From: a phage
Assembly (NCBI GenBank): GCA_014437165.1
Contig: GCA_014437165.1_4090.3
Length of the DNA: 64,000 nucleotides
Direction: 5' to 3' (one strand)
This document shows, piece after piece, positions 20,721-40,481 of this stretch. The notes beneath the pieces were generated by a model. It saw only the letters and a program-made list of their open reading frames with translations, was not told the DNA's origin and did no database searches. The position numbers and the translations under genes are program-made. Position 1 is the first letter of the stretch, and each line of letters begins with the position of its first letter.

Positions 20721-21419
20721 TCAAAATTTTTATTTTATTTTTTCCAATAGTTCCCCTACCGCGTGGGGATGGTTTCCCCGCAGTATCTGGAGTTAGATTT
20801 TTCTGAATCTGGAATCATTATCTAATAAACTGGGGGCAATGTCAACCGCCTGGATGAATAATTTTAAAAAATAATCTAGTACTGAATTTTAGATACAACT
20901 ATGCACCCGGTGGGCTAGAGTCTTTCTCGACTTGATGAAACTATTATACAGTACTGAAAAAATAAAGCAATACCCTAAACGCAAAAAGTTTTAATTAATT
21001 TGCTTGCCATCCTGGGGCGTACTATGATACTATTATTCAGTACTGAGAAAGTGCTATGACCTGCTAAGGTGCGGGAGTGTATCCTTTTTAAATTTACTGA
21101 ATTTTGGGCGTAATTCCGCACCCCCTGGGGTATCCGCTTTCTCGCGTCTATGTAGTAATTATACGCTTTTTTAGTACTGAGTCAATAGCTAAAAACAAAA
21201 TAATTGAAAATAATTTAACGCGTTTAAACGGCCCGTAAAGCCCTGGTTAGCTGGTGGCGGTGCAAATGTATAGCTTAGGTGTATTAATGCGTTAGAATGC
21301 GATTGAGGACGTTTTACGGGGTATAGTACTGAATCAGTACTGAAAGATTGTTCTCCCTGGATTGTTCCAGTACTCCTATATAGAAAGAAAACTATTTTAA
21401 AAGTATTTGTAGAAAGTAC

Positions 21420-21447
21420 TTGCAAAGTATTGGGAAAGGTGTAGAAT
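21420..21447 (+). promoter_or_regulatory. promoter TTGCAA-16-TAGAAT followed by 5'-UTR hairpin
   Basis: precedes ATG 21505; hairpin CGGGGGAGACGCTCCCG between -10 and SD. Confidence 0.5.
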
Positions 21448-21504
21448 GTTTTACATCGAGACGGGGGAGACGCTCCCGACTCACTTTTAAAAGAGATTAA
21501 AACG

Positions 21505-21867
21505 ATGGCTACTAAAATCAATACTATCATGCTTAACCTGGTTTCTTTCCGTGAAGAGATGAAAGATCTTCCCGCTGAGACTGTACGGATTCACATTGCA
21601 GCTTATCGGGAATTGATTGCAATGTTGCCGCTTAAGCGTGAACAGTACGCCGCTACTGCAATGCTGGATGCAATGATCCATAAGATGATCCAGACTGATT
21701 TAACGATGGCTTATCAGTACATGGGCGAAATGTTTGCAGTGTATAGCAAGCCAGTACCAGGAATGGAAAGTACAGAAGTATTGCACGGCTTAAACTTAAA
21801 ACAAGATGCATGGGATAATATGCCTCGTTTCCTGGTATGGGCTGACAGTGGCAAGATTTACGAATAA
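21505..21867 (+). CDS. hypothetical protein (120 aa)
   Basis: ORF with own promoter + hairpin + SD. Confidence 0.6.
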   Translation: MATKINTIMLNLVSFREEMKDLPAETVRIHIAAYRELIAMLPLKREQYAATAMLDAMIHKMIQTDLTMAYQYMGEMFAVYSKPVPGMESTEVLHGLNLKQDAWDNMPRFLVWADSGKIYE

Positions 21868-21881
21868 GTTTAATAAAGTAC

Positions 21882-21909
21882 TTGCAAACTAAGTTTAAAA
21901 GCGTATAAT
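21882..21909 (+). promoter_or_regulatory. promoter TTGCAA-16-TATAAT (PeSL-like cassette with hairpin 21922-21940 GTGGGGAATAGTTCCCCAC)
   Basis: consensus hexamers; 5' hairpin immediately after TACATCA start region; SD AAGAGGA. Confidence 0.65.
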
Positions 21910-21961
21910 ACTTTACATCAGGTGGGGAATAGTTCCCCACTATAATTAAGAGGATTTAAAA

Positions 21962-22201
21962 ATGGCTAAATCAAAAATGTTCTTAGGACACAAAAACAAA
22001 ACTCAATGGAATGTAAGCCTTTGGATTAATAACGACGAATCATTATACCGGTTGGCCCAGGACTTTATTGCCGCTAACACTAATCGTAATGATGCGGCCC
22101 GTCATATGATGCTATTTTTAGAACAGACTGGACAAGATAAAACACCGGACGGCTTTAAGTATAGCACTACTGCGATCCGTGCGGCGATGGTTGGAATGTA
22201 A
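21962..22201 (+). CDS. hypothetical protein (79 aa); paralog of 24362-24601
   Basis: GHKNKTxWNVSLWINNDESLYR…TPDGFKYSTTAIRAAMVGM shared with 24362 product. Confidence 0.7.
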   Translation: MAKSKMFLGHKNKTQWNVSLWINNDESLYRLAQDFIAANTNRNDAARHMMLFLEQTGQDKTPDGFKYSTTAIRAAMVGM

Positions 22202-22283
22202 GAGAATAGATTAAAAGTACTATTGCACGGTGATAGTACTTTATAATAGATTTCTTTTATACAACAACGATAGGGGTAACAGC

Positions 22284-22550
22284 ATGAATATTATATACTT
22301 TGCAACGCGTGAACTTGCTCGGATTGCCGCACGCCAGGACGGGGCGACGTTTAAAGATATGGGCGTACAATCTGAACGTGGTAAACGTTGGGCCGTAGTA
22401 AAGCAAAGTACAGCCCGATCAATTCAGTACTGGCTATCTGCTTTAAAGCGTCCTGATAGTGTATCGCGTCGCGTGGTAGAAATAAAGCACGACCGCAAGG
22501 GCAACCGCGTTACTGTGTACAGTACTAAAAAGATAGCAGTACTTGAATAA
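22284..22550 (+). CDS. hypothetical protein; paralog of 34763-35158 (…HDRKGNRVTVYS)
   Basis: ATG 22284 chosen (track start 22230 lies inside the promoter). Confidence 0.6.
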   Translation: MNIIYFATRELARIAARQDGATFKDMGVQSERGKRWAVVKQSTARSIQYWLSALKRPDSVSRRVVEIKHDRKGNRVTVYSTKKIAVLE

Positions 22551-22556
22551 AAGTAC

Positions 22557-22584
22557 TTGCAAAGTAAGTTAAAAGGCGTATAAT
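22557..22584 (+). promoter_or_regulatory. promoter TTGCAA-16-TATAAT + hairpin GGTGGGGAAGTATTCCCCACC (22596-22616)
   Basis: same cassette architecture. Confidence 0.65.
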
Positions 22585-22634
22585 ACTTTCTATCAGGTGG
22601 GGAAGTATTCCCCACCACATAAGAGGATTTAAAA

Positions 22635-22865
22635 ATGACTATCATGTATATGACCGAAGTTAAAACTGTAAAAGATACTACCACTGATAAAACTACTTAC
22701 TTACAGCGGATCTGTGGTGTATGGCAACGTATCAGTAAAGCAAAGTACTATAAATTAACATCATATGCCAATCGTTCGGATTCATTCAGTACTGAAATAA
22801 AAGGTAATAAAGTACACCAATACGGCACTTATTACTATTATAGCCTGGACGCGATTGCAGTCTAA
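22635..22865 (+). CDS. hypothetical protein (76 aa)
   Basis: SD AAGAGGA 8 nt upstream. Confidence 0.6.
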   Translation: MTIMYMTEVKTVKDTTTDKTTYLQRICGVWQRISKAKYYKLTSYANRSDSFSTEIKGNKVHQYGTYYYYSLDAIAV

Positions 22866-23291
22866 GCAGTTTTTGAAAATATTTACAATTGCCGGTATTG
22901 ACTTATTTTGTCAGTACTGGCATAATGTATCTATTGAAACGAACAATTTGGCCCACGGGGTGCGGGAGTGTATCTATAGAAAAAGTAGTTTAGTACAGTT
23001 ACAATTGTGCACCCGGTGGGTTAGCTGTTGTCATGGGGTATATTATACCAGTACTGGATAGTGCTGTCAATACCTTTTTACTATTCAGTACTTAAAACTA
23101 TTTTCAAAAAGTACTTGCAAACTATGTTTAAAGGCGTATAATGTTTTACATCAGGACGGGGAATGAATAAGTAACTCCCCGTTAAGTAGCCCAGGAGTAA
23201 GGCACACGAAAAACTCCCCTGATAAAATAGTTTGACAATTGTTTTTAAAAGCGTATAATACTTACATCAACTACTGAATGAGGGTTACAAA

Positions 23292-23903
23292 ATGAAAACT
23301 ATCACTACTACTACTTATGTTATGGCTTTTTCTGAATTGAACGCAGAACAACAAACGTCAGCTATCGAACTGGTTCGGGATCGGGAACGTTCAAGCGGTG
23401 ATGATTTCTTTTCTGAGTCAGTGATCGAGTACTATAAAGAAACAGTACTACCAGAATATGGAATTGATGACGCTGATTTGCAATTCAGTGGTTTTTGGTC
23501 GCAGGGTGACGGTGCATCAATCAGTACTGACCACGTTGACGCAGTGAAGTTTTTACGCAAGGTAAGAGCATTAACTAAGTATCGCTCAATCCGTCACCTG
23601 CTGAATGAAGATGATTTGGCGATGAGTGTAAAGCGTTCTCACTCCCACTACTCGCATGAGAACACTGTAAGCGGGTACATTGAATCGGCTTACACTGATT
23701 TAACCGCAAAACAAGAAACGTTAGTTAATGAGCTTGAGGAACTACTCACTGATACTATTCGTGAATTATCCCGCAAGTTGTACCGTGATTTAGAGAATGC
23801 ATATGAGGATCAATTCACTACTGAAAACATTACGGCACTGATTGAGGGTAACGAATATCAATTCAATGTTATTGATGGCGTAGTAGAATCAATCGAATAT
23901 TAA
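23292..23903 (+). CDS. hypothetical acidic protein (203 aa)
   Basis: SD GAGGG; preceded by tandem promoter/structured leader element 23147-23275. Confidence 0.65.
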   Translation: MKTITTTTYVMAFSELNAEQQTSAIELVRDRERSSGDDFFSESVIEYYKETVLPEYGIDDADLQFSGFWSQGDGASISTDHVDAVKFLRKVRALTKYRSIRHLLNEDDLAMSVKRSHSHYSHENTVSGYIESAYTDLTAKQETLVNELEELLTDTIRELSRKLYRDLENAYEDQFTTENITALIEGNEYQFNVIDGVVESIEY

Positions 23904-23915
23904 TTCAAAAAGTAC

Positions 23916-23943
23916 TTGCAAACTAAGTTTAAAAGCGTATAAT
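23916..23943 (+). promoter_or_regulatory. promoter TTGCAA-16-TATAAT + hairpin GAGGCGGGGAATGGTTCCCCGCTC
   Basis: cassette before 23997. Confidence 0.65.
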
Positions 23944-23996
23944 ACTTTATATCGAGGCGGGGAATGGTTCCCCGCTCACACTAAAAGGGCAACAAA

Positions 23997-24263
23997 ATGA
24001 AAACTTTAAATATCACAACTGCACATCAATTGGTTCGGGATGCAATGGATCATGTGCAAGATTTCTTCCCTGATGTAAGTGTCGTAACTTATGAAAAAGG
24101 TACTTGGACTTATTCAACAATTAATGGTTATGAGCCTGATTTTGATGACCTGGAAGAAATGGAATTTAATTTTGATCTGCTGAATGATGCCGCCCGTGAA
24201 GTTGAAAACGATGTTCAATACATTGATGGAGTAGTCGCACCTGATGCAGTAAAAGGATTATAA
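23997..24263 (+). CDS. hypothetical acidic protein (88 aa)
   Basis: cassette + SD. Confidence 0.6.
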   Translation: MKTLNITTAHQLVRDAMDHVQDFFPDVSVVTYEKGTWTYSTINGYEPDFDDLEEMEFNFDLLNDAAREVENDVQYIDGVVAPDAVKGL

Positions 24264-24361
24264 AATTTAAAAAGTACTTGCATTGTAGTTAGATTAACGT
24301 ATAATACTTTATATCGAGGCGGGAGAATGGTTCTCCCGCTCAATCAAACGAGGATTTAAAA

Positions 24362-24601
24362 ATGGCTAGTACTAAATCTTACAACGGTCACAAAAACAAA
24401 ACTCATTGGAATGTTTCATTGTGGATTAATAACGATGAGTCATTGTACCGGATCGCTCAACGTTGGATCGCACAAAGTAGTACTAAAGATTATGCTGCTG
24501 AATGTATGTACCGCGAATTAAAAGCAAACGGTACTACTACAACGCCGGACGGATTCAAGTATAGCACTACTGCGATCCGTGCTGCAATGGTTGGAATGTA
24601 A
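24362..24601 (+). CDS. hypothetical protein; paralog of 21962-22201
   Basis: shared motifs. Confidence 0.7.
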   Translation: MASTKSYNGHKNKTHWNVSLWINNDESLYRIAQRWIAQSSTKDYAAECMYRELKANGTTTTPDGFKYSTTAIRAAMVGM

Positions 24602-24620
24602 CATTCAGTACTGAATCAAT

Positions 24621-24643
24621 GGCGGGGATTGGTTCCCGCCTTT
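24621..24643 (+). terminator. hairpin GGCGGGGATTGGTTCCCGCC + TTT
   Basis: after stop of 24362-24601. Confidence 0.5.
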
Positions 24644-24658
24644 ACTGAGGATTATCTA

Positions 24659-24943
24659 ATGAGCAAAGTAATTAACTATACAGTACTAAGTAAATCATTA
24701 TCTATCAGCCATTGCACCGATGGTTATTGGCTTTATGATGAAACACGCGGCATGAATTTAGCTATGCAGGAGAAAACTACAGATGCGGCATATCTTAAAG
24801 CACTGGAATACTACCAGAAGCGATTAAAGGAAGTAGAAAACGATTATAATAACCTGAAAGCGAAAGTAGATCATTTCGTCGGTCAATTCGTTGACGATGA
24901 CGAGGACGGGCACTACTGCGACCGTTGCGGATCTTACAGTTAA
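24659..24943 (+). CDS. hypothetical protein (C-terminal CxxC: HYCDRCGSYS)
   Basis: ATG 24659 after SD GAGGA (track start 24629 sits in hairpin). Confidence 0.55.
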   Translation: MSKVINYTVLSKSLSISHCTDGYWLYDETRGMNLAMQEKTTDAAYLKALEYYQKRLKEVENDYNNLKAKVDHFVGQFVDDDEDGHYCDRCGSYS

Positions 24944-24960
24944 GTACTGAGGATTATCTA

Positions 24961-25164
24961 ATGAGTGATTTAATTGAACGTATCAAAGAGCTTGAAGAAA
25001 AAGAATTACAGTTAATCGGCTTACAGAATAAAGTATTCCATGATTTAGGTGGCTTTATTAATGCCTGGGATAGTGGCGATCCTGAAGCGTTACCTGCTAA
25101 CCGCCAGGCAATGATCAATGATGTGCGTGATGTCTTTGAGTATGTTTTAAAGCAATTAAATTAA
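24961..25164 (+). CDS. hypothetical protein (68 aa)
   Basis: same SD sequence ACTGAGGATTATCTAATGAG as the previous gene (duplicated junction). Confidence 0.55.
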   Translation: MSDLIERIKELEEKELQLIGLQNKVFHDLGGFINAWDSGDPEALPANRQAMINDVRDVFEYVLKQLN

Positions 25165-25250
25165 AAAAGTACTTGCAATTAGTTTTTAGTACTGTATAAT
25201 AGTTTACATAGAGGGGAGAAATGGTTCTCCCTGGTAATGAGGAAAATACA

Positions 25251-25472
25251 ATGGCTAATATCACTACTCTTTCTCAACTGGAAGCACTGGTTAAATCTAT
25301 GCGGGAACATGCCGACAATATCGGCGTAAAAGATCCAGCCGTTTGCTTCTGCGACGAAATGAATGATGATACACTGGTAATAGCAGAAGTACAAGATATT
25401 TCTAACTATTCATCGCGTTACACTGGCGGCGTAGCAAATAAAGGTGACTTCTGTTTATACCTTACTAAGTAA
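25251..25472 (+). CDS. hypothetical protein (73 aa)
   Basis: ATG 25251 after hairpin and SD. Confidence 0.55.
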   Translation: MANITTLSQLEALVKSMREHADNIGVKDPAVCFCDEMNDDTLVIAEVQDISNYSSRYTGGVANKGDFCLYLTK

Positions 25473-25719
25473 TACAGAGGGGATCAATTGGTCCCCTTTC
25501 TTTTTTCAGTACTGAATCATTTAATAGACGGATCTATGCACCCAGTGGGTTAGAGACTATCTCGTCTTTATGTAGTAATTATGCCAGTACTGGATGCAGT
25601 TGTCAACAATTATTTTTCAAATACTTTTATATTAAAGTACTTGCTATTAGTTTTTAAACGCGTATAATGTTTTACATCGAAAGGGGAAACGGTTCCCCTG
25701 GTAACTAAGGAATAAGAAA

Positions 25720-25956
25720 ATGGTCGAACAAATAAAATCAACGTCTGCGAATGTAACGGGAACAGTATCACACTTTATTGGTGATGAATCGCGGGGCGTT
25801 CCCTATTGTGCTGTACATGTAAACACTGATGGCAACTACTGGTTTACGGTTTACGGATCTTATTCATTTGGTCTGCCTGGACATCAAAAAATCCTGGATA
25901 AAGTACAGCCAACGGGTAAAAATATCACTGCTGAAATGTTTTATAAAAAATCATAA
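25720..25956 (+). CDS. hypothetical protein (78 aa)
   Basis: cassette + SD AAGGAA. Confidence 0.6.
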   Translation: MVEQIKSTSANVTGTVSHFIGDESRGVPYCAVHVNTDGNYWFTVYGSYSFGLPGHQKILDKVQPTGKNITAEMFYKKS

Positions 25957-26040
25957 AGTACTTGATAATAGTTTTTAGTACTGTATAATATTTTACATCG
26001 CAAGGGGTAGCGGTTCCCCCTGGTAACTAAGGATAATCAA

Positions 26041-26340
26041 ATGAAAGTTGCAATCATCGCCCTGGCTTTATCTGTTTCCTCTTTCGCTGTTAACGCATCG
26101 TTAGATGTGAGTAGTGATAAATTCATTCAGTGCACCGTAGCAATGACCAATGAAAGTACTGGCGAGATTGTTTTAAAGGATTTAGAGATCCAGCCAGAAG
26201 CATTTAAAAGCGGCCCGTTCCATGAAGAAGACGAAAAAGGTAGCACGACAATTTATTACGATGTAAGTACTAAGCGTGGATCGGTCACGGTTATGGATAC
26301 TGAGAAAGTAACGCACACCGGAGTAATTAACTGTTTATAA
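26041..26340 (+). CDS. small secreted/periplasmic protein with Sec-type signal peptide (MKVAIIALALSVSSFAVNA|S)
   Basis: N-terminal K + hydrophobic core + A-x-A-like cleavage motif. Confidence 0.65.
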   Translation: MKVAIIALALSVSSFAVNASLDVSSDKFIQCTVAMTNESTGEIVLKDLEIQPEAFKSGPFHEEDEKGSTTIYYDVSTKRGSVTVMDTEKVTHTGVINCL

Positions 26341-26357
26341 TATAGTACTGAATCACT

Positions 26358-26386
26358 AGCCCACCTTAAACAGTGGGCTTTTTTGT
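26358..26386 (+). terminator. intrinsic terminator AGCCCACC-TTAAACA-GTGGGCT + TTTTTTG
   Basis: classic hairpin + T-run; identical copy at 27093. Confidence 0.8.
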
Positions 26387-26588
26387 TTTTGTATTATCGT
26401 AGTACTGCATACTTTAAAAATAGTTTTAAAATAGTAGTTGACATTACCACAAAAAGGCGTAGAATGTATTACATCAAGACGGGGAGCACTAAGTAGACCG
26501 CCAGTAAGTCGAACGAAAAACTGGACACGTCGATAAAACTTTGATACACTAATAAACGTAAACTAAACTTTAATTGAGGATTTATAAA

Positions 26589-27071
26589 ATGGCTAATGTA
26601 AAATCATTCCTGAAAGCACTGATTTCAAACGATACTGTTATTGCTGCTGAATTGTTGGCTGACCTGGATAACGATACCATGAAAGCAGTACGCAACAATT
26701 TTAACATTGCGTACAGTGAAGCTAAAGAACTGCAAGCCAAAAAGGTAGCAGAACTGGAAGAACAGAAAAAAGCCCGTGAAGCCGAACTGCAAGCAACAAT
26801 CGAAAGTATCCAGGCGGCGGTGGCTGGATTGGATCTGGAAGTAGTTGTAGAAATGGCACATAAAGCCCTGGCGGTTAAGTATGGTGAAGATAAGCCAGAA
26901 TCTAAACCTAAAAAATGGATTCAAGAACGTGTTACTGTAGTACTTGATAACGGGGAAGAACATATGATTCCTGTACGCGGTAACTGCATTGCGGTAGTAC
27001 TGGACGCTATCAAAGAAAGCGGTATGACTCGCGAGGAATGGATCGAAGCTCATCGCAAAGTTGAAGCATAA
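26589..27071 (+). CDS. hypothetical coiled-coil protein (160 aa)
   Basis: ATG 26589 after SD GAGGA; Lys/Glu/Ala-rich heptad-like segment. Confidence 0.65.
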   Translation: MANVKSFLKALISNDTVIAAELLADLDNDTMKAVRNNFNIAYSEAKELQAKKVAELEEQKKAREAELQATIESIQAAVAGLDLEVVVEMAHKALAVKYGEDKPESKPKKWIQERVTVVLDNGEEHMIPVRGNCIAVVLDAIKESGMTREEWIEAHRKVEA

Positions 27072-27092
27072 CAATTAAAGTACTGAATCACT

Positions 27093-27120
27093 AGCCCACC
27101 TTAAACAGTGGGCTTTTTTG
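27093..27120 (+). terminator. intrinsic terminator (identical to 26358-26386)
   Basis: hairpin + T-run. Confidence 0.8.
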
Positions 27121-27356
27121 TGTCTGTAGTATTCCAGTCCACCAGCACCGCCTAGAATCGATTCTAACGCATTAAACTGATTATCTGATACATCGCCCTA
27201 GCTGGTGGCGTTAAGGTCGTTAGAATGCGATTGAGAGCGTTTAAAGTATTTTGCAAAAAGTAATAAAAAGTACTTGCACGATTAAGAGATTAGCGTATAA
27301 TGTTTTACATCGAGAGGGGGAAACGGTTCTCCTTCCAAATCAAAGGAATCAAAACA

Positions 27357-27584
27357 ATGGCTATTATCATTACTCGCGTATCTGGTACTACTGGCAACGA
27401 ACAAGTAGTTGCAGTCATTACTAACAAGGCAGGTGCGGAATTGCAAAATGCAATGAATACCTGGGCCGTTAATGAGTTCGGTCAGTGGGCAAGTGTAGCA
27501 TACATTGAAACCTATCAAGTGCCGTCGATTAGTTTAACTGATTTGGGCGTTGAGCGTATCCTTTGCCTGGATGAATTAAATTAA
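27357..27584 (+). CDS. hypothetical protein (75 aa)
   Basis: ATG 27357 after SD AAAGGAA. Confidence 0.55.
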   Translation: MAIIITRVSGTTGNEQVVAVITNKAGAELQNAMNTWAVNEFGQWASVAYIETYQVPSISLTDLGVERILCLDELN

Positions 27585-27671
27585 AAAAAGTACTTGCAAA
27601 GTAAATCGAATAAAGTATAATACATTACATCAAGGGGAGAAATGGTTCTCCCTGATAATGAGGAAACTAAA

Positions 27672-27884
27672 ATGGCTATCATTACTAAAATCAAAGTTAA
27701 CAAGACTATCGTTAAACTGGTAGAAGTGAAAGAAGGTTATAAAGTATCTTGGTGCGGTATGTATCGGACGTTCGCAGATATAGATGATGCGATCAATTAT
27801 TACAGTGACACGGTTAAAAACTTTGTTCGTGCTGATGTGGTTATGGCAGTGGCAACATATAAAGCAGCGAAAGAAAGTAAGTAA
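27672..27884 (+). CDS. hypothetical protein (70 aa)
   Basis: ATG 27672 after SD GAGGAAA. Confidence 0.55.
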   Translation: MAIITKIKVNKTIVKLVEVKEGYKVSWCGMYRTFADIDDAINYYSDTVKNFVRADVVMAVATYKAAKESK

Positions 27885-27895
27885 AAATATTATCA

Positions 27896-27925
27896 CAGTA
27901 CTATTGACATAGTTTGATAGTACTG
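27896..27925 (+). promoter_or_regulatory. promoter with operator-like palindrome CAGTACTAT-TGACA..TTG-ATAGTACTG spanning the -35 and spacer
   Basis: near-identical copies at 30405-30434 and 38799-38828. Confidence 0.55.
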
Positions 27926-27975
27926 GCATAATAGATTTTATCAAGACGACACATATTAATTTAAGGAATACTAAA

Positions 27976-28299: not shown

Positions 28300-28379
28300 T
28301 TAGCTTTACTTTATGCAGATACTTTGATATAGTGTCTGCATAGGAGAAAGAAATTAAATCAACTTAAGAGGATAGTAAA

Positions 28380-28649: not shown

Positions 28650-28700
28650 TCAAATCATCGTCAGTGGTCGATTTAGGCCGCTTATATTGGGGATTATACC

Positions 28701-32774: not shown

Positions 32775-32791
32775 TATAAGGAGTACAGCTT

Positions 32792-33200: not shown

Positions 33201-33514
33201 AAATAATTGAAAAAGGGATTGACTCCGGTCAGTCCCTTTGCTATTATATACGCATAGAAACAAATCAGCCCACAGGGTGCATAAATGTATCTATTGTTTG
33301 CTGGTGGCTAGTACTGAAAACTATTTTTAAAAAGTACTTGCATTGTACTTAGAATCAAGTATAATATTTTACATCAGGACGGGGAACGAAACAAGTAACC
33401 CCGTTAAGTAGTCCAGGAGTAAGACATAAGAAAACCTCCCCTGATAAAATAGTTTGACAATAGAAAGTAAACGAGTATAATACTTACATCAACCACTGAT
33501 AAGGAAACATTAAA

Positions 33515-33790
33515 ATGCGGATTCTACTGACAGCTAACGAAATCGAACAAGTACTGACTACTAACCTGGAAGACTGGAAACGTGAAGCAGATATCCAGGC
33601 GGTTCAATGGCTTAACGATAAGTTAACGCCGGATGACTTAAGCAAGATTGTAGATCCTCAATTCTACGAAGATATTCACGACACCGCGTTAAGCGTCGAG
33701 GATGTACTTGATAAGCACTACATTGATATTGATTTGCAGGTTTACGGTCGTAAAAACTTTATCACTATTCACGACATTTACAATAATTAA
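33515..33790 (+). CDS. hypothetical acidic protein (91 aa)
   Basis: preceded by structured leader repeat 33371-33490. Confidence 0.6.
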   Translation: MRILLTANEIEQVLTTNLEDWKREADIQAVQWLNDKLTPDDLSKIVDPQFYEDIHDTALSVEDVLDKHYIDIDLQVYGRKNFITIHDIYNN

Positions 33791-33851
33791 GTATTGACAA
33801 AGTATCTTAGTACTGTATAATAGTTTACATCTTAATTAAAAAGGAAACATC

Positions 33852-33986
33852 ATGAAAGCGAACAAAGCAGCAAAGAAACAAACCAATCCCCTGGCTGGCT
33901 GGAAGTTAGATTTATCCGATGAAGTAGTTTGCACAAATAAGAATGTAGTTGAAGCTGAAAAGAAATTACGAAAAGAAAACAAATAA
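33852..33986 (+). CDS. hypothetical small basic protein (44 aa)
   Basis: promoter + SD AAGGAAA. Confidence 0.4.
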   Translation: MKANKAAKKQTNPLAGWKLDLSDEVVCTNKNVVEAEKKLRKENK

Positions 33987-34071
33987 GTATTGACAAAGTA
34001 TCTTAGTACTGTATAATAGTTTACATCAAGGGGGGAATGGTTCCCCTCCTAACAAAGAGAGAGAAATAAAA

Positions 34072-34254
34072 ATGGCTAAGTGCACTATCTGCAAGAAAGA
34101 AATAGTATTAGTTCCAAGTGCCCGTGAACGTGCCGCTCGGTTCGGTGGCAAAGCGTCAGACTATACAAAAATGTTTACTACCCATGCAGCTTGCCAGGTA
34201 GCAAAACGTTCACAAGAAAGCGTAGAATTAATGCGTAAACTTTCCAAAAAATAA
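34072..34254 (+). CDS. hypothetical protein (60 aa)
   Basis: cassette + SD. Confidence 0.5.
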   Translation: MAKCTICKKEIVLVPSARERAARFGGKASDYTKMFTTHAACQVAKRSQESVELMRKLSKK

Positions 34255-34343
34255 GTATTGACAAAGTATCTTAGTACTGTATAATAGTTTACATCAAGCG
34301 AGGGGAATGGTTCCCCTCCTAACTAAAAGAGAGAGAAATAAAA

Positions 34344-34667
34344 ATGGCTATGATCCTTACCCAGAAAGTAGAACTGAAAATTGTAACCTCCTTTGACATT
34401 AAAGTTAATCGCTGGACTGATCGGAACGGTAACACTTACCACTCTTGCTACGTGTCCGCGTTAATTGGCGACCGCTGGGAAGACTTGGGACATGAAACCT
34501 TTACTTACGGTTACGGTACACAAGGAGAATACACGGGCTTGGAGATCATTAAAGAAACCGTTATAGGTTTCAACCCGAAAGAAAAAGTTATTCACCGCAT
34601 CGAAAAAGAGATTAACAAAGAAATAACAGTTCGCTACTACGATGTAAAACGTAAGAAAGACATGTAA
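34344..34667 (+). CDS. hypothetical protein; paralog of 27976-28299
   Basis: shared motifs. Confidence 0.65.
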   Translation: MAMILTQKVELKIVTSFDIKVNRWTDRNGNTYHSCYVSALIGDRWEDLGHETFTYGYGTQGEYTGLEIIKETVIGFNPKEKVIHRIEKEINKEITVRYYDVKRKKDM

Positions 34668-34762
34668 TAGAATCCATTTAAAGTACTATTTGACATTGCC
34701 CAGATAGTACTTTATAATAGACTCTAACTTGTAGTACTAACTCAACTAATAGGATGTATACC

Positions 34763-35158
34763 ATGATTACTAAATTCTACGCTACCCGTGAAGCTGCCCG
34801 TATTGTTGCACGCGAGGAAGGAGCAGCATTTAAAGACATGGGCAAAGATGCACCGAAAGGTCAACGCTGGGCCGTACAGTTCAAAGAAATCTCTGATATC
34901 GTGAATTCACCGGAGCCAGTACTAACAGCAGCAGAACTAAAACGAGCGGATTTACTGGCGGCAGTACTTAACGCACAAGATGAATTTATCGCTGATTCTG
35001 ATATCAAAGTACAGACAAACCATACCGCTTGGACTCACGCGGATCACCTGGCAAACCTTAAGCGTCCAAGTGAACTGGTTCGCAACCAGAAAGAGATCCG
35101 ACACGACCGTAAGGGTAATCGTGTAACAGTATACAGTAAACGCCGCCAGGTTATCTAA
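34763..35158 (+). CDS. hypothetical protein; paralog of 22284-22550
   Basis: F.TRE.ARI.AR..GA.FKDMG…HDRKGNRVTVYS shared. Confidence 0.6.
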   Translation: MITKFYATREAARIVAREEGAAFKDMGKDAPKGQRWAVQFKEISDIVNSPEPVLTAAELKRADLLAAVLNAQDEFIADSDIKVQTNHTAWTHADHLANLKRPSELVRNQKEIRHDRKGNRVTVYSKRRQVI

Positions 35159-35180
35159 TAACTTGCAGTACTAACAACAC

Positions 35181-35205
35181 GGCGGGATCAGTTCCCGCCT
35201 TTTTT
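35181..35205 (+). terminator. intrinsic terminator GGCGGGATCAGTTCCCGCC + TTTTTT
   Basis: hairpin + T-run. Confidence 0.7.
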
Positions 35206-35220
35206 ATAGGATAAACTAAA

Positions 35221-35475
35221 ATGATTAAGGTACAACTATCTAAAGATAATATCTTGCGGGTACACTATAAAGCACCACAGAGAATCATCACAAAGGCCGT
35301 ACAGCTTGCTAATGAGTTTATTAATGGTAACCTATTACCAAGGAAGTTAAGCAACGGAAAACTGCGTGTAATCGATGTAGACACTAACAACAGAATAGTA
35401 ATTGAGAACACAGGAAAGATAAACCTATATGAACACCAACAATATAATAAGAAAATAAAACTAATATCACGTTGA
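35221..35475 (+). CDS. hypothetical protein (84 aa)
   Basis: SD AGGATAAA. Confidence 0.55.
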   Translation: MIKVQLSKDNILRVHYKAPQRIITKAVQLANEFINGNLLPRKLSNGKLRVIDVDTNNRIVIENTGKINLYEHQQYNKKIKLISR

Positions 35476-35528
35476 CAGTACTCAATTGTTTTAGTATTAT
35501 GTACACATACCAACACGGGAGAAACAAA

Positions 35529-35747
35529 ATGAAATTATCTAAAATCGAAAAGAAAACTATTGATGAAGCAGTTAAGCACGGTTATACCTTTCGTAATGAT
35601 TCACATTTTACCAATTTTCAACAAGGCCAAAGGACTATTAAAAAACTAATTGACAAAGGTTTATTAGTTAAAGTAGATAACGGTAACGGCATTGAGTATC
35701 AGCCAACCCAAGACGCATTATCTTTAAAGAAATATGCAATTATCTAA
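35529..35747 (+). CDS. hypothetical protein; paralog of 35805-36047
   Basis: identical promoter/leader sequence; ATG after GGGAGAAA. Confidence 0.55.
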   Translation: MKLSKIEKKTIDEAVKHGYTFRNDSHFTNFQQGQRTIKKLIDKGLLVKVDNGNGIEYQPTQDALSLKKYAII

Positions 35748-35804
35748 TTGACAGTACTCAAATGTTTTAGTACTATATGTACATACCAACACGGGGAAAA
35801 CAAA

Positions 35805-36047
35805 ATGATTACTTTAGAAAAACGTATCAAAGAAACTACATCGCTGGTGGAACTGTTAACAGTACTGAAATGCCGTACTACTCGGTTTAGTACACCGGAC
35901 TTTATTAATATGGTTGATGTTAACGGTCGTTATCGCATTGCAGTAGAACAAGGAACAGCGAAAGTATTCAGTACTAAAAACACTAAGGAAGTGATTCACG
36001 CTGTAAGTGTTAAAAAAGTAGTTGCCATTGATAGTAAAGTACTGTAA
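35805..36047 (+). CDS. hypothetical protein; paralog of 35529-35747
   Basis: duplicated promoter TTGACAGTACTCAAtTGTTTTAGTA-TAT…. Confidence 0.55.
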   Translation: MITLEKRIKETTSLVELLTVLKCRTTRFSTPDFINMVDVNGRYRIAVEQGTAKVFSTKNTKEVIHAVSVKKVVAIDSKVL

Positions 36048-36078
36048 GATAGTTTCATTAACTCAAGGAGAACATGCA

Positions 36079-36663
36079 ATGCGTAATTATACTAAATTCA
36101 TCCGTACCCTGTCAGAAATGGAAACCAACAAAGAGATCCTTTCAGCTTGTCGGTTAGCTGGTCTGGAGATCATCGGTGCGGGTTCTTCCCGTATTGTATT
36201 CGCTTTAAATGATCGGTTAGTGATCAAGGTCGCGAATTGTGATGCGGGTGTAGAACAAAATGAAACTGAATGTAAGGTATGGAATTTTTTAGATTATGAC
36301 CGCCCTCAATTGAAACAGTACTTTGCAAAGGTGCATATGCATTTATGCGATCCTGATAATATGTTTATCGTTATGGATCGGTTGAGTACTGCAAGTAAAG
36401 GCAGTGTAAAGCACGTAAACGCGTGCAATGAATTAAAGTACAATATTAAACGTAATGCCATTGAACGCCAGCACCGCTTTGCTGATGCACTACAACACGT
36501 TGATGATACATTATCAACACTAACGATAAGAGATATCAGAAAACAGAATATCGGCCAGGATCGTAATGGCCTTATTAAAGTACTTGATTACGGTTTAACC
36601 CGCAATATCTGGAATCAGTACTATAAAAAGCGTGATGTAGAAGCAAGTAAGGTAACACGATAA
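36079..36663 (+). CDS. minimal protein-kinase-like protein
   Basis: G-loop IGAGSSRIVF, LVIKVA lysine, catalytic-loop-like IRDIRKQNIG, DFG-like KVLDYG; SD AAGGAGA. Confidence 0.6.
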   Translation: MRNYTKFIRTLSEMETNKEILSACRLAGLEIIGAGSSRIVFALNDRLVIKVANCDAGVEQNETECKVWNFLDYDRPQLKQYFAKVHMHLCDPDNMFIVMDRLSTASKGSVKHVNACNELKYNIKRNAIERQHRFADALQHVDDTLSTLTIRDIRKQNIGQDRNGLIKVLDYGLTRNIWNQYYKKRDVEASKVTR

Positions 36664-36884
36664 AAAAGATTAAAAAAGGGATTGACTCCGGTCAGTCCCT
36701 TTGCTATTATATATTCATTGAGAGATAACTCACTGACCCATAGGGTGCGGAAGTGTATCTATTATATAAGTATTCAGTACTGAAAACTATTTGATAAAAA
36801 GTACTTGCATTGTACTTAGAATCAAGTATAATGTTTTACATAGAGAGGGGGAAATGGTTCTCCCTGGTAATAAGGAATAAAATC

Positions 36885-37106
36885 ATGACTACAATGACTT
36901 GCATTTACGCTTCCAATCTTCTGAATGATGCGGCCTTTAATGTTGATTCAGAATATCAATGTTATCGGGATGAAAATAAAAAAGTTTTTGTAGTTGATAA
37001 TAATGGTTTCCATATTGAATTACAATCCGGTTTCACTGGTGTTGATGGTAAATCAGTGTGGGGCGTACAGGATGATAAAGGCACATATCATTTTAAACGT
37101 AATTAA
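36885..37106 (+). CDS. hypothetical protein (73 aa)
   Basis: ATG 36885 after SD AAGGAA. Confidence 0.55.
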   Translation: MTTMTCIYASNLLNDAAFNVDSEYQCYRDENKKVFVVDNNGFHIELQSGFTGVDGKSVWGVQDDKGTYHFKRN

Positions 37107-37189
37107 GTATTGACAAAGTATATCAGTACTGTATAATAGTTTACATCAAGGGGAGAATAGTTCTCCCCAATACAATAAGGAATAAAATC

Positions 37190-37597
37190 ATGTCTACTAC
37201 TACTAATCTCGCTCGGAACATCACTAACGATAAAAATCATGCTGCAATGGTTGTAGCTTACATTGAAGCTATGCAATTCAGTACTGTACATAATGATAAC
37301 GGCGATTACCTGGAAGATTATGAGTTATCTGATGAAGCACGTCAAGCGGCGGTGATTGCATGTTCTCGCTTCATTGAGAAACACGGTAATGATCTGGAAG
37401 TAGTTCGCGGTATGTTTATTGATTACGGTTATGAGCAAGCTGGTCATGATCTGTTCCTTACCCGCGAAGGTCACGGAACTGGTTTTTGGGATCGTGGTTT
37501 AGGTCACTATGGCGATGTATTCACGAAGTACTGCGAAGAAATCAACGTTTGCGATCCCTATGTAGGCGATGATAATCTAATCTATATGGGCGAATAA
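37190..37597 (+). CDS. hypothetical protein (135 aa)
   Basis: cassette + SD. Confidence 0.6.
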   Translation: MSTTTNLARNITNDKNHAAMVVAYIEAMQFSTVHNDNGDYLEDYELSDEARQAAVIACSRFIEKHGNDLEVVRGMFIDYGYEQAGHDLFLTREGHGTGFWDRGLGHYGDVFTKYCEEINVCDPYVGDDNLIYMGE

Positions 37598-37684
37598 AAG
37601 TATTTGACAAAGTATATCAGTACTGTATAATAGTTTACATCAAGGGGAGAATAGTTCTCCCCGATACTAAAAGGAAACAAAATT

Positions 37685-37957
37685 ATGTCTAGTTACTCCG
37701 CTACTATGATCATTAAAGATATGAACGGTAATCCTACTTCTGCTGGTGGATCATTTGGAAACATTAATTTAGATGGTCGGTTATCCATGCAATCAGCCAT
37801 CGATGCAGCGAAAGAAGTTTTTAAGAATGAATGTACTGTTAGTAAGCTGGATTATATGGGATTCGCTATCGAGAAAACTAATCGTTTTGTGAACTACAAA
37901 AATCCACTGATGATTGATACTAACCTGAAAGCTAACGAAGTGGGGTACTTATTATGA
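37685..37957 (+). CDS. hypothetical protein (90 aa)
   Basis: cassette + SD. Confidence 0.6.
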   Translation: MSSYSATMIIKDMNGNPTSAGGSFGNINLDGRLSMQSAIDAAKEVFKNECTVSKLDYMGFAIEKTNRFVNYKNPLMIDTNLKANEVGYLL

Positions 37958-38145
37958 CAGTAGAAGAAGTTAAAAAAGTACTGGCAGTACTACGCTATCA
38001 TAATCATTGCAAGGTGAAGAATGATCCTGATTATGTTGATTCATCCCTGGAGGAAGACACATTAAACGCAATAAGCCATATGCAAACATTAGCAAAGCGT
38101 ATGACCGAAAAGAATAGACCGGACTATATCGGAAATAAAATTTAA
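37954..38145 (+). CDS. hypothetical protein (63 aa)
   Basis: ATGA coupling. Confidence 0.5.
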   Translation: MTVEEVKKVLAVLRYHNHCKVKNDPDYVDSSLEEDTLNAISHMQTLAKRMTEKNRPDYIGNKI

Positions 38146-38231
38146 AAAGTACTTGCATTGTAGTTAGATTAACGTATAATGTTTTACATAGAGCGGGGGA
38201 ATAGTTCTCCCGCCAGTCCAGGAGATACACC

Positions 38232-38495
38232 ATGAACACTATCGAAATCACTATCAATGCACACGTATACGACAACGTAGTACTGCAAACTACTATGACC
38301 GCTAATGATACCAGTACTTTGCGGAATACCGTTGTAAGTGCTGTATGTGCTGCAATCGGTGATGTAGCCCTGGAAAATGCAGAACACATCAACAACGGTT
38401 TCACTATGTGCAAACGTGATAACGCAAAACATATCATCTTAGAAGGTTACGGCGGTGTAGAATATAACCTTTATATGAAAAAAGTACTTGCATAA
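38232..38495 (+). CDS. hypothetical protein (87 aa)
   Basis: cassette + SD CAGGAGA. Confidence 0.55.
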   Translation: MNTIEITINAHVYDNVVLQTTMTANDTSTLRNTVVSAVCAAIGDVALENAEHINNGFTMCKRDNAKHIILEGYGGVEYNLYMKKVLA

Positions 38496-38562
38496 TAACT
38501 AAAACAAAGTATAATGTTTTGCATAGGGGGAGATATCCTCCCCCACTAAAAGGAGTAATAAA

Positions 38563-38787
38563 ATGGCTAACTTTGATGAACTAATGCGGGAAGTAGCTAA
38601 CCTGGCAGAAGAGAAGAAATCATTCGATTCTATCTATAACACCGCTCATCGTGATTCAGTACTGGCATGTACTCAGGATCAAAAAGATGAACTGATCGCC
38701 ACCTACCATGAAGCGTGGCAGTACTACCGCCAATGGGAGAAAGAAGAAAGTGAGTCTACCATTGACGGCCTCAATAATCTAATCTAA
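38563..38787 (+). CDS. hypothetical acidic protein (74 aa)
   Basis: cassette + SD AAGGAG. Confidence 0.6.
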   Translation: MANFDELMREVANLAEEKKSFDSIYNTAHRDSVLACTQDQKDELIATYHEAWQYYRQWEKEESESTIDGLNNLI

Positions 38788-38798
38788 AAGTTTTATTT

Positions 38799-38828
38799 CA
38801 GTACTATTGACATAGCTTGATAGTACTG
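38799..38828 (+). promoter_or_regulatory. promoter with operator-like palindrome (copy 3)
   Basis: CAGTACTATTGACATAGCTTGATAGTACTG. Confidence 0.55.
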
Positions 38829-38863
38829 ATGTAATAACTTTACTAACTACAAGGGGAAACATA

Positions 38864-39121
38864 ATGGAACAGTTCACACAATATCGGGTAAATCCTCAAG
38901 CTATGGCCTACGTAGAAGACCATAAAACGTTACCAGTACTAACACCAATTAAAGGCCATATCTATCGTGCAATGTCATGGAATACGGCCCAGGATGGATA
39001 TACTACCGCTGGCGTGGGTATGTATTGCGGGAATGGTGAATGGTTTGATCCAAATAATCCGGTAGCCATTGACAGTACTGAAAAAATGAAATGGGCCGAC
39101 TACATCGAAGATATTTCATAA
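38864..39121 (+). CDS. hypothetical protein (85 aa)
   Basis: SD AAGGGGAAA. Confidence 0.55.
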   Translation: MEQFTQYRVNPQAMAYVEDHKTLPVLTPIKGHIYRAMSWNTAQDGYTTAGVGMYCGNGEWFDPNNPVAIDSTEKMKWADYIEDIS

Positions 39122-39210
39122 AACTATTTGACAGTACTAACCAGTAATGTATAATGTTTTACATAGAGCGGGGGAATAGTTCTCCCGCCAATAGTTTGGA
39201 GTAAAACATT

Positions 39211-39411
39211 ATGTCTATCGCTATCGCCCTGGTTGAAGTACTGAAAGAAGCTAAAGCCAACCAGATCGACGTAAAGATCCAGGAACTACAAAACGGCTTA
39301 ATCGGCTGTACTTGTACCGCTGGTGGAGCGGCAGACTATCGAGAACACGAATCACTCGAATCACTGGTTCGGTATCTTACCATGATCGTTGATGATTGGA
39401 GAATCATCTAA
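39211..39411 (+). CDS. hypothetical protein (66 aa)
   Basis: cassette + SD. Confidence 0.55.
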   Translation: MSIAIALVEVLKEAKANQIDVKIQELQNGLIGCTCTAGGAADYREHESLESLVRYLTMIVDDWRII

Positions 39412-39657
39412 CAAAAAAGAATAAAAAAAGGAGTTGACTTCGGTCCGCTCCTTTAGTACTATATACGCATAGACAAAAACTAGCCCACAGGGTGCATAGG
39501 TGTATCTAAAATATATAGTTAATAACGGTGAGTAACTATCTGCTGGTGGAACTAAAACTATTAATAAAAAAAGTATTGACAAAGTATATCAGTACTGCGA
39601 TAATGTATCTCGTAGGGCGGCAATGGTGCGACGGCCCACAAAGTTAGGAGATTCAAA

Positions 39658-39990
39658 ATGAGTACTTCAATCGCTATCGTTAAAGCTTTCATCCGTACCA
39701 ATGTTTCATCTGTATTCATCGACGGTCTGGATCGGGAAGTAGAATACTCAATCATTATCGCACAGACTGCAAACGGTGCTCGGTATATCCTTAATGATAG
39801 TGAAGCAAATCACTACTACTTCACTAAAGCTACTGGCTTTAAACGCATCGATGCTGACGTAGTATACGCTAAGATGAATAAGCTGGTAGACAAGATTAAC
39901 GCGAAAGGTACTATCGATTTACAGTACTGGACCGAAACCGATCCAGAATATGGATCTCACCGCTACCTGAATCCAGGTATTAAAATGTAA
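39658..39990 (+). CDS. hypothetical protein (110 aa)
   Basis: SD TAGGAGA. Confidence 0.6.
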   Translation: MSTSIAIVKAFIRTNVSSVFIDGLDREVEYSIIIAQTANGARYILNDSEANHYYFTKATGFKRIDADVVYAKMNKLVDKINAKGTIDLQYWTETDPEYGSHRYLNPGIKM

Positions 39991-40079
39991 AAAGTACTTG
40001 CATAGTACTTAGAATCAAGTATAATGTTTTACATAGAGAGGGGGAAATGGTTCTCCCTCCTAAATTAAGGAGTTTTATC

Positions 40080-40481
40080 ATGACCTTCTCAATCAATTCC
40101 TTCGCTGACGTTTTAGTACTGGCTCGGACTTTTGGTAAAGATGCACTGGAGTACGCTGTAAGTAATGGTACTATCCAACCGGAACAGTGCCGCATCATTG
40201 GAAACTGCAAACGTTGGGCGGTATCCAATACTATTGCACTGGAAAACTTCCACGATGGCAACAATGAATATTCTGTTGATGTAGTATTCGAAGCCGTTGA
40301 TCTCGGCGGTATCTATAATACTAACCTGAATGATGTGCGTATCGTTCGCACGGGGTTCGGTGCTTATGATGTATCTATTCGTGAAGCTATGAACACCGGA
40401 TACATTAGCAAGGACTTACTTGCTCACATCATGCAGCTGTGTACGGAACGTAACGAAGCACGCACTATCTTAGGACTGTAA
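40080..40481 (+). CDS. hypothetical protein (133 aa)
   Basis: ATG 40080 after SD AAGGAG. Confidence 0.6.
   Translation: MTFSINSFADVLVLARTFGKDALEYAVSNGTIQPEQCRIIGNCKRWAVSNTIALENFHDGNNEYSVDVVFEAVDLGGIYNTNLNDVRIVRTGFGAYDVSIREAMNTGYISKDLLAHIMQLCTERNEARTILGL

Follow-up and report, generated by a model that had tools for sequence, protein, structure and literature searches.

The 64,000 nucleotides (nt) of phage DNA analyzed here (contig GCA_014437165.1_4090.3 of assembly GCA_014437165.1; hereafter, the window) contain a repeated unit in which a promoter, a hairpin, and a ribosome site precede a small gene. By reading the sequence and by scanning for promoters followed by hairpins, we found 25 such units between 21412 and 40082, all on the + strand and all inside a direct terminal repeat. 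A strict scan (TTGNNN, 16-18 nt, a -10 element with at most one mismatch, and, beginning 8-16 nt further on, a stem of 6 bp or more that includes three or more G-C pairs) returned 22 units, all of them on the + strand, compared with 0.35 ± 0.59 units (maximum 3) in 100 dinucleotide shuffles scanned on both strands. The units are therefore real and far beyond chance. A covariance model built on 24 units found no further full copy in the window.

The elements stand in the order A-run with AAGTAC, -35, spacer, -10, RNTTTACAT(C/A)RA, hairpin, A-rich linker with the Shine-Dalgarno (SD) sequence, and ATG. The -35 is TTGCAA or TTGCAT in 14 copies, TTGACA in 8, and a near variant in the rest; the spacer is 16 nt in 24 of the 25 units, and the -10 is TATAAT in 23. 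All 25 promoters are σ70-like with an AT-rich upstream region (A-run plus AAGTAC), and a promoter scan recorded 15 perfect 12/12 consensus promoters in 20 kb. The stems have 6-10 bp, with a purine-rich G-run in the 5ʹ arm and a pyrimidine-rich C-run in the 3ʹ arm, and enclose loops of 3-5 nt; in 24 units the stem lies 17-26 nt from the ATG, with the SD between them. A G.U pair is present in about half of the hairpin copies; the hairpin at 25984 contains a T.T mismatch, and the loop at 23137 measures 13 nt.

A previous sequence-only reading had described such units in front of dozens of small genes, and at all six positions that it gave as examples the described unit is present. There are indeed many units, but their number is two dozen (25). 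The perfect (G)GGGGAA/TTCCCC(C) hairpin of that reading is recognizable as a G-run/C-run hairpin, although it is neither always perfect nor of one form. That most genes carry a unit was too strong a statement: by a rough gene count, the full unit precedes ~45% of the genes of the region, a similar promoter and start region without the hairpin precedes ~20% (e.g., at 23254, 27927, 30436, 31819, 33476, and 33816), and about a third have neither. Near-identical units do stand before unrelated genes, as had been claimed, with unit-to-unit identities of up to 97%, 96%, and 90%, while the downstream proteins are small and unrelated (1 of 276 pairs detectably similar).

Megablast searches with 21400-29400 and 29400-40400 matched 134-189 phage records, the best of which were 88-98% identical over only 40-91% of the query and in many pieces. 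The closest records are ~350-kb Escherichia coli jumbo phages of the genus Asteriusvirus (121Q, PBECO4, G17, Sharanji, ph0011, and JP4), and by this similarity the window belongs to a 121Q/PBECO4-like Asteriusvirus jumbo coliphage. Records labelled as Campylobacter phages (7-11), plus single Acinetobacter and Klebsiella records, showed 80-90% identity to parts of the region.

In JP4 (L003), the stretch matching window positions 19815-40911 is present twice, 20.1 kb apart, and homology to other relatives ends at 40927. For the close relative Sharanji, PhageTerm gave a direct terminal repeat of 20,668 bp (PMC11895373), and the annotation of Klebsiella phage Muenster marks the corresponding region (1-20030) as a terminal repeat. 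Because of the JP4 duplication, the end of homology at 40927, and the repeats of Sharanji and Muenster, we take the early region that holds all units to be a direct terminal repeat at ~19815-40927 (~21 kb, + strand). The genes to its left are on the - strand, and those to the right of 41.4 kb are tightly packed and without units. Early in infection by the relative PA5oct, the host polymerase transcribes the genes of the terminal repeat at a high level (PMC7318152), and RpoD-like promoters with UP elements have been predicted for the early genome region of CBB (PMC5259590). The annotation of relatives assigns to the repeat of the window a zinc-finger protein of the DksA type, an N-acetyltransferase, and a protein kinase (31533-31790, 31854-32210, and 36079-36663). 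DksA/ppGpp is not known to inhibit promoters with A/T-rich sequence from the -10 to the start, and the promoters of the units are A/T-rich in this interval.

Along the + strand of the repeat, cassette 1 (21412-21507) reads AAGTAC-TTGCAA-16-TAGAAT and has the hairpin CGGGGG-agacg-CTCCCG at 21462-21478 and its ATG at 21505. Cassette 2 (21874-21964; TTGCAA-16-TATAAT) carries GGTGGGGAA-tag-TTCCCCACT (21921-21941; ATG 21962), and cassette 3 (22549-22637) carries GGTGGGGAA-gta-TTCCCCACC (22596-22616; ATG 22635). A variant unit without an open reading frame (ORF) after it follows at 23107-23228, where a cassette promoter precedes ACGGGGA-13 nt-TCCCCGT and a Y-shaped RNA of ~75 nt is predicted. Within cassette 4 (23908-23999), which has GGCGGGGAA-tgg-TTCCCCGCT at 23956-23976 and ATG at 23997, homology to four relatives ends at 23976-23981. 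Cassette 5 (24270-24364; TTGCAT-16-TATAAT) has GGCGGGAGAA-tgg-TTCTCCCGCT (24318-24340; ATG 24362). The hairpin GGGGAGAA-atgg-TTCTCCCT occurs both in cassette 6 (25165-25253; hairpin 25213-25232; ATG 25251) and in cassette 10 (27586-27674; hairpin 27634-27653; ATG 27672). Between these two lie cassette 7 (25633-25722; TTGCTA-16-TATAAT) with AGGGGAA-acgg-TTCCCCT (25682-25699; ATG 25720), cassette 8 (25954-26043; TTGATA-16-TATAAT; ATG 26041), whose hairpin GGGGTA-gcgg-TTCCCC is weakened by the T.T mismatch, and cassette 9 (27266-27359; TTGCAC-16-TATAAT; ATG 27357), whose hairpin GAGGGGGAA-acgg-TTCTCCTTC (27314-27335) has two G.U pairs; cassette 9 and its gene are 86% identical to the rV5-like phage A73.

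Cassette 11 (29058-29146; TTGACA-16-TATAAT) has GGGGGGAA-atgg-TTCTCCCC at 29106-29125 and ATG at 29144, and cassette 12 (29656-29745) has AGGGGAAA-cgg-TTTCCCCT at 29705-29723 and ATG at 29743. Cassette 13 (30092-30182; TTGACA-16-TATAAT), with GGGGAGAA-atga-TTCTCCCC (30140-30159; ATG 30180), is 96% identical to cassette 15 (32477-32564; hairpin 32525-32544; ATG 32562), which precedes an unrelated gene; cassette 14 (32206-32291; TTGCAT-17-TATAGT) has AGGGGAA-acatc-TTCCCCT (32253-32271; ATG 32289). Next come cassette 16 (33982-34074) with GGGGGGAA-tgg-TTCCCCTC (34030-34048; ATG 34072), cassette 17 (34250-34346) with GAGGGGAA-tgg-TTCCCCTC (34300-34318; ATG 34344), and cassette 18 (36797-36887; TTGCAT-16-TATAAT) with AGGGGGAA-atgg-TTCTCCCT (36846-36865; ATG 36885), the last being 97% identical to cassette 25. 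The hairpin GGGGAGAA-tag-TTCTCCCC of cassette 19 (37102-37192; hairpin 37150-37168; ATG 37190) recurs before an unrelated gene in cassette 20 (37596-37687; hairpin 37644-37662; ATG 37685), and GCGGGGGAA-tag-TTCTCCCGC is found in cassette 21 (38145-38234; hairpin 38193-38213; ATG 38232) and in cassette 23 (39120-39213; TTGACA-16-TATAAT; hairpin 39168-39188; ATG 39211). Cassette 22 (38480-38565) has GGGGGAG-atatc-CTCCCCC (38526-38544; ATG 38563), and the row ends with cassette 24 of the coding set, the 25th unit overall (39990-40082), with GAGGGGGAA-atgg-TTCTCCCTC at 40038-40059 and ATG at 40080.

Conservation of the leader hairpin

For every leader, the predicted fold contains the hairpin (-11.6 to -16 kcal/mol), and neither the SD nor the AUG is paired. 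Z-scores of these folds against dinucleotide shuffles were modest (-0.9 to -3.7), because the shuffles retain the GG and CC runs. On a plain MAFFT alignment, RNAalifold found four pairs that had changed on both sides, and a model-fitted alignment of 78 copies contained 31 double changes, compared to 16.7 ± 3.9 in shuffles (0 of 500). Since the G-runs can pair with the C-runs in several registers, we replaced such alignment counts by a comparison of cognate with non-cognate arms and by orthologous comparisons.

The arm comparison used 42 cassettes from the window (Asteriusvirus), the rV5-like phage A73 (L004), and the Alcyoneusvirus phages RaK2 (L005) and Muenster (L006), which together contain 27 distinct stems. 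Cognate arms paired at -13.1 kcal/mol and non-cognate arms at -7.2 kcal/mol, and none of 2000 permutations was as good. In all 42 cassettes the stem starts 9-14 nt past the -10 (mode 12), and the Klebsiella phages have quite different stems at this same position (GGGGAUACA/UGUAUCCCU, GGGAAUGAA/UUCAUUCCC, and GGAGAUUCCA/UGGAAUCUCC). Orthologous positions gave the same picture. Before the gene at 22635 (cassette 3), five phages have five different intact stems, with T-A, C-G, and A-U at one pair, so that the swaps include T-A to C-G and C-G to A-U. Before the gene at 38232 (cassette 21), GCGGGGGAA/UUCUCCCGC is swapped in relatives for GAGGGGGAA/UUUCCCCUC, and the hairpin of the relatives reads GAGGGGGAA-atgg-TTTCCCCTC.

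In the distinct stems, the G of a G.U pair is always in the 5ʹ arm (15 of 15), so these pairs form only in RNA of the + strand (or in single-stranded DNA). A restricted scan counted 11 G.T against 1 A.C, which is supportive only, as most cases go back to one inherited site; a looser scan of the same kind was polluted by chance hairpins and was set aside. Compensatory changes, on which the sequence-only reading had made its hairpin depend, and G.U-mediated changes thus keep the hairpin among copies, orthologues, and genera. Taken together, the comparisons argue for selection on the structure of the hairpin, acting on the transcribed strand.

It is highly improbable, in our view, that the inverted repeat acts only in DNA, as a cruciform, a recombination hot spot, or a protein operator without any function in RNA. 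The compensation between arms would then stem from arm-to-arm template switching, and such quasipalindrome correction is known in E. coli and T4. Homology breakpoints do cluster in the units, as described below, and in phage RB49 a crossover at a promoter-early stem-loop (PeSL) was mapped to the loop (PMC2839356). However, a G.T oriented to pair only on the transcribed strand is retained by about half of the window's copies, and arm-to-arm correction would erase it. In addition, the half-sites differ between copies in one genome to a degree that a single DNA-binding protein would not tolerate, and all copies are oriented as the genes are.

Relation to promoter-early stem-loops and exchange between phages

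PeSLs are known from the T4-type phages RB49/phi1, T4/PST, and KVP40/nt-1; there, the stem-loop is placed ahead of the promoter, within it, or directly before its start, and has been presented as a terminator (PMC2839356, PMC4122927). A further trait of PeSLs is the excision of mini-circles flanked by the elements. The units resemble PeSLs in their components, which are a strong early promoter of the σ70 type preceded by AT-rich sequence, a G-run/C-run stem-loop, an SD, and a start codon, and the stem is likewise stable (e.g., GGGGAGAA/TTCTCCCC, -11.6 to -16 kcal/mol). They also occur in many copies beside small orphan genes of a plastic region, in which indels and replacements between relatives are bounded by the elements. 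Unlike in PeSLs, the stem-loop of the units is always inside the predicted transcript, 9-14 nt past the -10, and is without a T-run in 24 of 25 cases. Moreover, the units sit in a Rak2-like jumbo phage rather than a T4-type myovirus and fill its terminal repeat, and the same units are common to an rV5-like phage family.

Only one of the 25 hairpins (21462) passed a terminator scan. The 8 nt after the stems contain 0-4 T, and a T-rich tail (at least 5 T in 8 nt) was present in 1 of 25. We rejected an identity as intrinsic terminators because the U-tract is absent in 24 of the 25, and by its sequence features the unit hairpin is not a terminator. Sequences that do pass the scan are the canonical intrinsic terminator at 25476-25510 (hairpin plus T-run, + strand) and further ones at 26358-26385, 27093-27120, and 35181-35205, also on the + strand. 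PeSL-type terminator/promoter composites are present as well, at 33212-33247, 29524-29559, and 36675-36710 (+ strand), where the -35 lies within the hairpin AAAGGGATTGAC-tccg-GTCAGTCCCTTT and TATTAT comes after it; these belong to a repeated unit different from the cassettes.

The stem-loop might nevertheless stop or dampen read-in from upstream units, as a PeSL-type attenuator that leaves the own promoter as the main driver of each gene. This function has been assigned to PeSL stem-loops, one of which cut lacZ expression as much as rrnB T1 did (PMC2839356). Canonical terminators are few in the repeat, and a brake on cumulative read-through would be useful there. An orphan hairpin without a promoter (GGCGGGGA-ttgg-TTCCCGCC, 24621-24640, + strand), which lies between genes before the one at 24659 and gives a weak partial match to the covariance model, has a short TTT tail that would suit such a role. 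Against it, a hairpin downstream of its own promoter would attenuate its own gene too, and the T-rich tail is missing in 24 of 25. A terminator of upstream RNA would not need the distance to the -10 that is fixed at 9-14 nt in three lineages, and the true PeSL-type composites nearby (33212-33247) look different. We therefore consider attenuation to be quite unlikely.

The region was compared with five relatives (L001, L002, L003, L007, and L008), and breakpoints and single-gene indels were found at the units. The units account for 12.3% of the DNA and contain 18 of the 45 clusters of homology breakpoints (binomial p = 2.6e-6), and five more clusters lie in promoters without a hairpin. As homology blocks typically begin at a unit, the exchanged module appears to be a unit with its ORF or ORFs. 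At 21876-21955, for example, the window has one unit where EC22.5-2 (L002) has unit, extra ORF, and unit with the same hairpin, and at 29658-29742 it has one unit where the relative L002 has unit, an extra ORF of ~150 codons, and unit. Because units resemble each other, alignments will run into them whatever the mechanism, a caveat that is also valid for the PeSL papers.

The same modules occur in A73 (Vequintavirinae, 142 kb), whose units include the identical stems GGGGAGAA-tag-TTCTCCCC and GGGGAGAA-atga-TTCTCCCC and show ~84% identity across promoter, hairpin, and SD. This phage has at least eight of the same small genes, each with a unit, at 66-90% amino-acid identity and in permuted order. 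A strict pattern scan of IMG/VR found nothing beyond the same jumbo phage lineage. These data support regarding the units as PeSL-like portable cassettes for early expression, in which the stem-loop would have moved into the 5ʹ leader. The earlier likening to PeSLs thus holds for portability, which is backed by the breakpoints, the unit-ORF-unit indels, and A73, but the position of the stem and the absence of a T-run set the units apart from a textbook PeSL.

The RpoD-like promoters with UP elements predicted in CBB, GAP32, and PA5oct (PMC5259590, PMC7318152) are of the same class, from the same region (early genes and terminal repeat), and from the same clade. Those reports concern promoters only, whereas the leader hairpin, the cassette character, and the recombination pattern are additional here. 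Neither the hairpin nor the cassette is mentioned in the papers on CBB (PMC5259590), PA5oct (PMC7318152), rV5 (PMC3606486), and Sharanji (PMC11895373), and our literature searches (for the motif and for rV5/Asteriusvirus promoters with stem-loops), from whose reach most subscription journals were excluded, found no prior description of the units.

Start site and possible roles of the leader

Downstream of the -10, TT at 4-5, A at 6, Y at 7, A at 8, and T at 9 are invariant. Y-A at 7/8 is the start expected from the start-site preference of σ70 polymerase, so the transcript probably starts at the A 8 nt past the -10, with the hairpin at about +5 to +25. An independent hint on this start comes from the non-coding unit at 23150-23228, the outer helix of whose predicted closed Y-shape begins exactly at the predicted start A.

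On balance, we find it slightly more probable than not that the unit is a portable immediate-early cassette with a leader hairpin selected at the RNA level, whose repetition promotes modular shuffling. It would combine a near-consensus σ70 promoter that has an A-rich/AAGTAC upstream element with a TTTAC-A-T start region, the hairpin, a linker, the SD, and the ATG. Judging from the sequence and from relatives, the host RNA polymerase would fire at each unit upon DNA entry, and the terminal repeat would be the part of such genomes that is transcribed first. The hairpin would then fold in the 5ʹ leader RNA and leave the ribosome site free, as structure conservation and predicted folds suggest. 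Its likeliest role may lie in the fate of the message, that is, in protecting or standardizing the 5ʹ leader of many unrelated short mRNAs, which is the weakest step of the proposal. Because the ~90-bp units are so alike, homologous recombination could insert, delete, and reorder modules of unit plus ORF. Such exchange, within the lineage and between unrelated coliphage families, has been proposed for the PeSLs of T4-type phages, and the comparisons above point to it here.

Several observations weigh against this interpretation. For the phage of the window, we infer both the start site and the early timing. In the model-fitted alignment, a register slid by +1 scored equally, the covariation being blurred by slippage between G-run and C-run. 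The similarity of the copies is largely due to common descent, so few independent events underlie the G.U asymmetry. The hairpin is absent from about ten promoters of this type in the region and is therefore not needed for expression as such. When the start was assumed 8 nt past the -10, a mean of 4.6 nt (range 0-7) was unpaired at the 5ʹ end, and after the tails behind the hairpin had been swapped between copies the value was the same (4.5 ± 0.2 nt), which gives no sign of selection to sequester the 5ʹ end. Further, RNase E is reported to bypass a simple, orthogonal stem-loop readily (PMC9943677), and the classic 5ʹ stabilizers hinder access to the 5ʹ end itself (reviewed in PMC3997798).

The units share with the E. 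coli 5ʹ stabilizers of ompA and papA, and with the hairpin appended to bla, a short stable hairpin near the mRNA 5ʹ end and a free ribosome site downstream (PMC3997798), here in the form of a structure-conserved hairpin on the transcribed strand within the predicted 5ʹ untranslated region. The stabilizers pair, or nearly pair, the very 5ʹ end and prolong mRNA half-life in a manner dependent on RNase E/RppH, whereas 4-6 nt at the 5ʹ end of the unit transcripts are predicted to be single-stranded. Since the predicted 5ʹ end stays unpaired and RNase E could bypass the hairpin, the anatomy does not favor simple stabilization; stabilization of the mRNA by the leader hairpin, as suggested by the sequence-only reading, remains plausible but somewhat weakened. 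A variant in which the leader would sequester its 5ʹ end by pairing with the tail after the hairpin was rejected, because the tail-swap control gave no signal.

Some features recur among the cassettes. Stems begin with GGGR or similar, the leader AUCRAR is conserved, and apices of the UAG/UGG/UGA/UAA type are found across genera. These regularities could fit a regulon tag, that is, a leader and hairpin bound by a phage or host protein on all immediate-early transcripts, either for antitermination or processivity loading as at lambda nut or for timed shut-off or translational repression. The single-stranded leader, the GGGR start of the stem, and an A-U-R-R-U-like apex (UAG, UGG, UGA, and UAA loops) are present in both Asteriusvirus and Alcyoneusvirus; the position of the hairpin is fixed relative to the start; and the repeat encodes regulators such as the DksA-like protein and the kinase. 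As with lambda nut (boxA plus boxB), the transcripts made from these early promoters would carry, near their beginning, a conserved linear element and then a short hairpin. However, stems and loops differ widely within a genome, with at least six stem families and loops of 3-6 nt in RaK2 and Muenster, and the co-variation of the arms fits a read-out of shape rather than of sequence. No candidate binding protein emerged. The boxB loop of lambda is conserved and read by N protein, whereas the units have variable loops and stems at 25 promoters of one genome and no N-like protein is known. A lambda-type nut site was rejected on these grounds, as the 42 cassettes contain 18 different loops of 3-6 nt and only the leader AUCRAR is conserved. 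Overall, we regard a regulon tag as unlikely. Were the leader and hairpin a common 5ʹ tag after all, read by a dedicated phage or host factor that controls the whole immediate-early set (through processivity, protection from phage-induced RNA decay, or timed shut-off) and exchanged as a pool together with the ORFs, an idea to which we give a similarly low probability, the modules of tag plus ORF would amount to an expression-ready pool of gene cassettes exchanged by homology among Asteriusvirus, Alcyoneusvirus, and Vequintavirinae.

The sequence behind the stem raises one more explanation. In read-through RNA, the hairpin and the A/U-rich linker could mark an RNase E cut and shield the upstream message from 3ʹ exonucleases, like intercistronic repetitive extragenic palindromic (REP)-type hairpins or the RNase III sites of T7. 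An A/U-rich single strand does follow the hairpin (e.g., AAUAAGGA or ACUAA), terminators are few enough to make read-through likely, and a paired 5ʹ end is not required. On the other hand, the fixed spacing to the promoter is left unexplained, and stems of 6-10 bp are too short for RNase III, so we hold 3ʹ-end protection or processing to be very unlikely. RegB-like GGAG cleavage, a CsrA site, an RNase III site, a sigma-dependent pause, and N4-type hairpin promoters were dropped, because the sequence features do not fit. Rfam gave no gathering-level match in the window, and permissive thresholds returned only chance-level matches (E ~0.9) in 29500-30200.

If the units are portable immediate-early cassettes, they bear on the hundreds of small early genes of jumbo phages that have no known function or regulation: the unit, which is conserved across genera, would drive about half of the genes in the terminal repeat. 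As a defined promoter and leader it can be tested, and it offers a handle for expressing or knocking down early genes. The PeSL idea of recombination between regulatory repeats would extend beyond T4-type phages, with the same modules in two unrelated coliphage families, and this may bear on how phages trade host-takeover and anti-defence genes. It also raises the question of what purpose is served by a leader structure that is under structural selection and appears to be neither a terminator nor a 5ʹ cap.

Other repeats and sequence biases

The palindrome AGTACT occurs 265 times in the window, where ~20 are expected (13-fold overall, with 21-fold inside the terminal repeat and 9-fold elsewhere; e.g., 24606, 25507, and 20153-20362). 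It lies in coding as well as non-coding DNA, in promoters (AAGTAC-TTG... and AGTACTG-TATAAT), in terminator stems, and as TTCAGTACTGAA between genes, while the next palindromic hexamer reaches only 2.1-fold. The excess is shared by RaK2 (28-fold) and Muenster (22-fold), not by the rV5-like A73, and no explanation of it was found in the literature searched. Some other palindromic hexamers are absent from the whole window (CCATGG, 0 vs. 9.9 expected; AGGCCT, 0 vs. 5.6; AGCGCT, 0 vs. 3.9; and CGATCG, 0 vs. 3.5), which looks like restriction-site avoidance.

A second repeated family has at least 10 copies, with the core on the + strand at 22952, 29586, 31263, 33269, 36737, and 39484 and on the - strand at 25549, 23020, 21129, and 20914; at 22927-23041, two of them point toward one another. 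A promoter belongs to each copy, in many cases TTGACT-17-TATTAT, whose -35 lies in a terminator-like hairpin, and a short covarying hairpin comes next. The invariant core consists of RRCCCAYNGGGTGC-N5-TGTATCTAT and AGTACTGAAAA, and no ORF follows. The family also occurs in RaK2 (L005; 6098, 12685, and 14122) and Muenster (L006; 14042, 17199, and 18759) and is absent from Rfam; we consider it a candidate small-RNA family of jumbo-phage terminal repeats.

Members of a third family lie at 23150-23228 and 33373-33450, with a divergent copy near 26460-26560, and the rV5-like A73 has it at 84-88% identity (L004; 5919-5998). In this family a cassette-type promoter would drive an ORF-less stretch of ~75 nt that reaches exactly up to the next promoter. 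It is predicted to fold into a closed Y-shape (-19 kcal/mol consensus) whose outer helix AUCAGG/CCUGAU begins at the predicted start, the copies being too few for covariation. Finally, in the - strand gene block at 3190-13638, all terminators follow one stem design, GCCAGTAC-N3-GTACTGGC plus a T-run, which is built around AGTACT half-sites.

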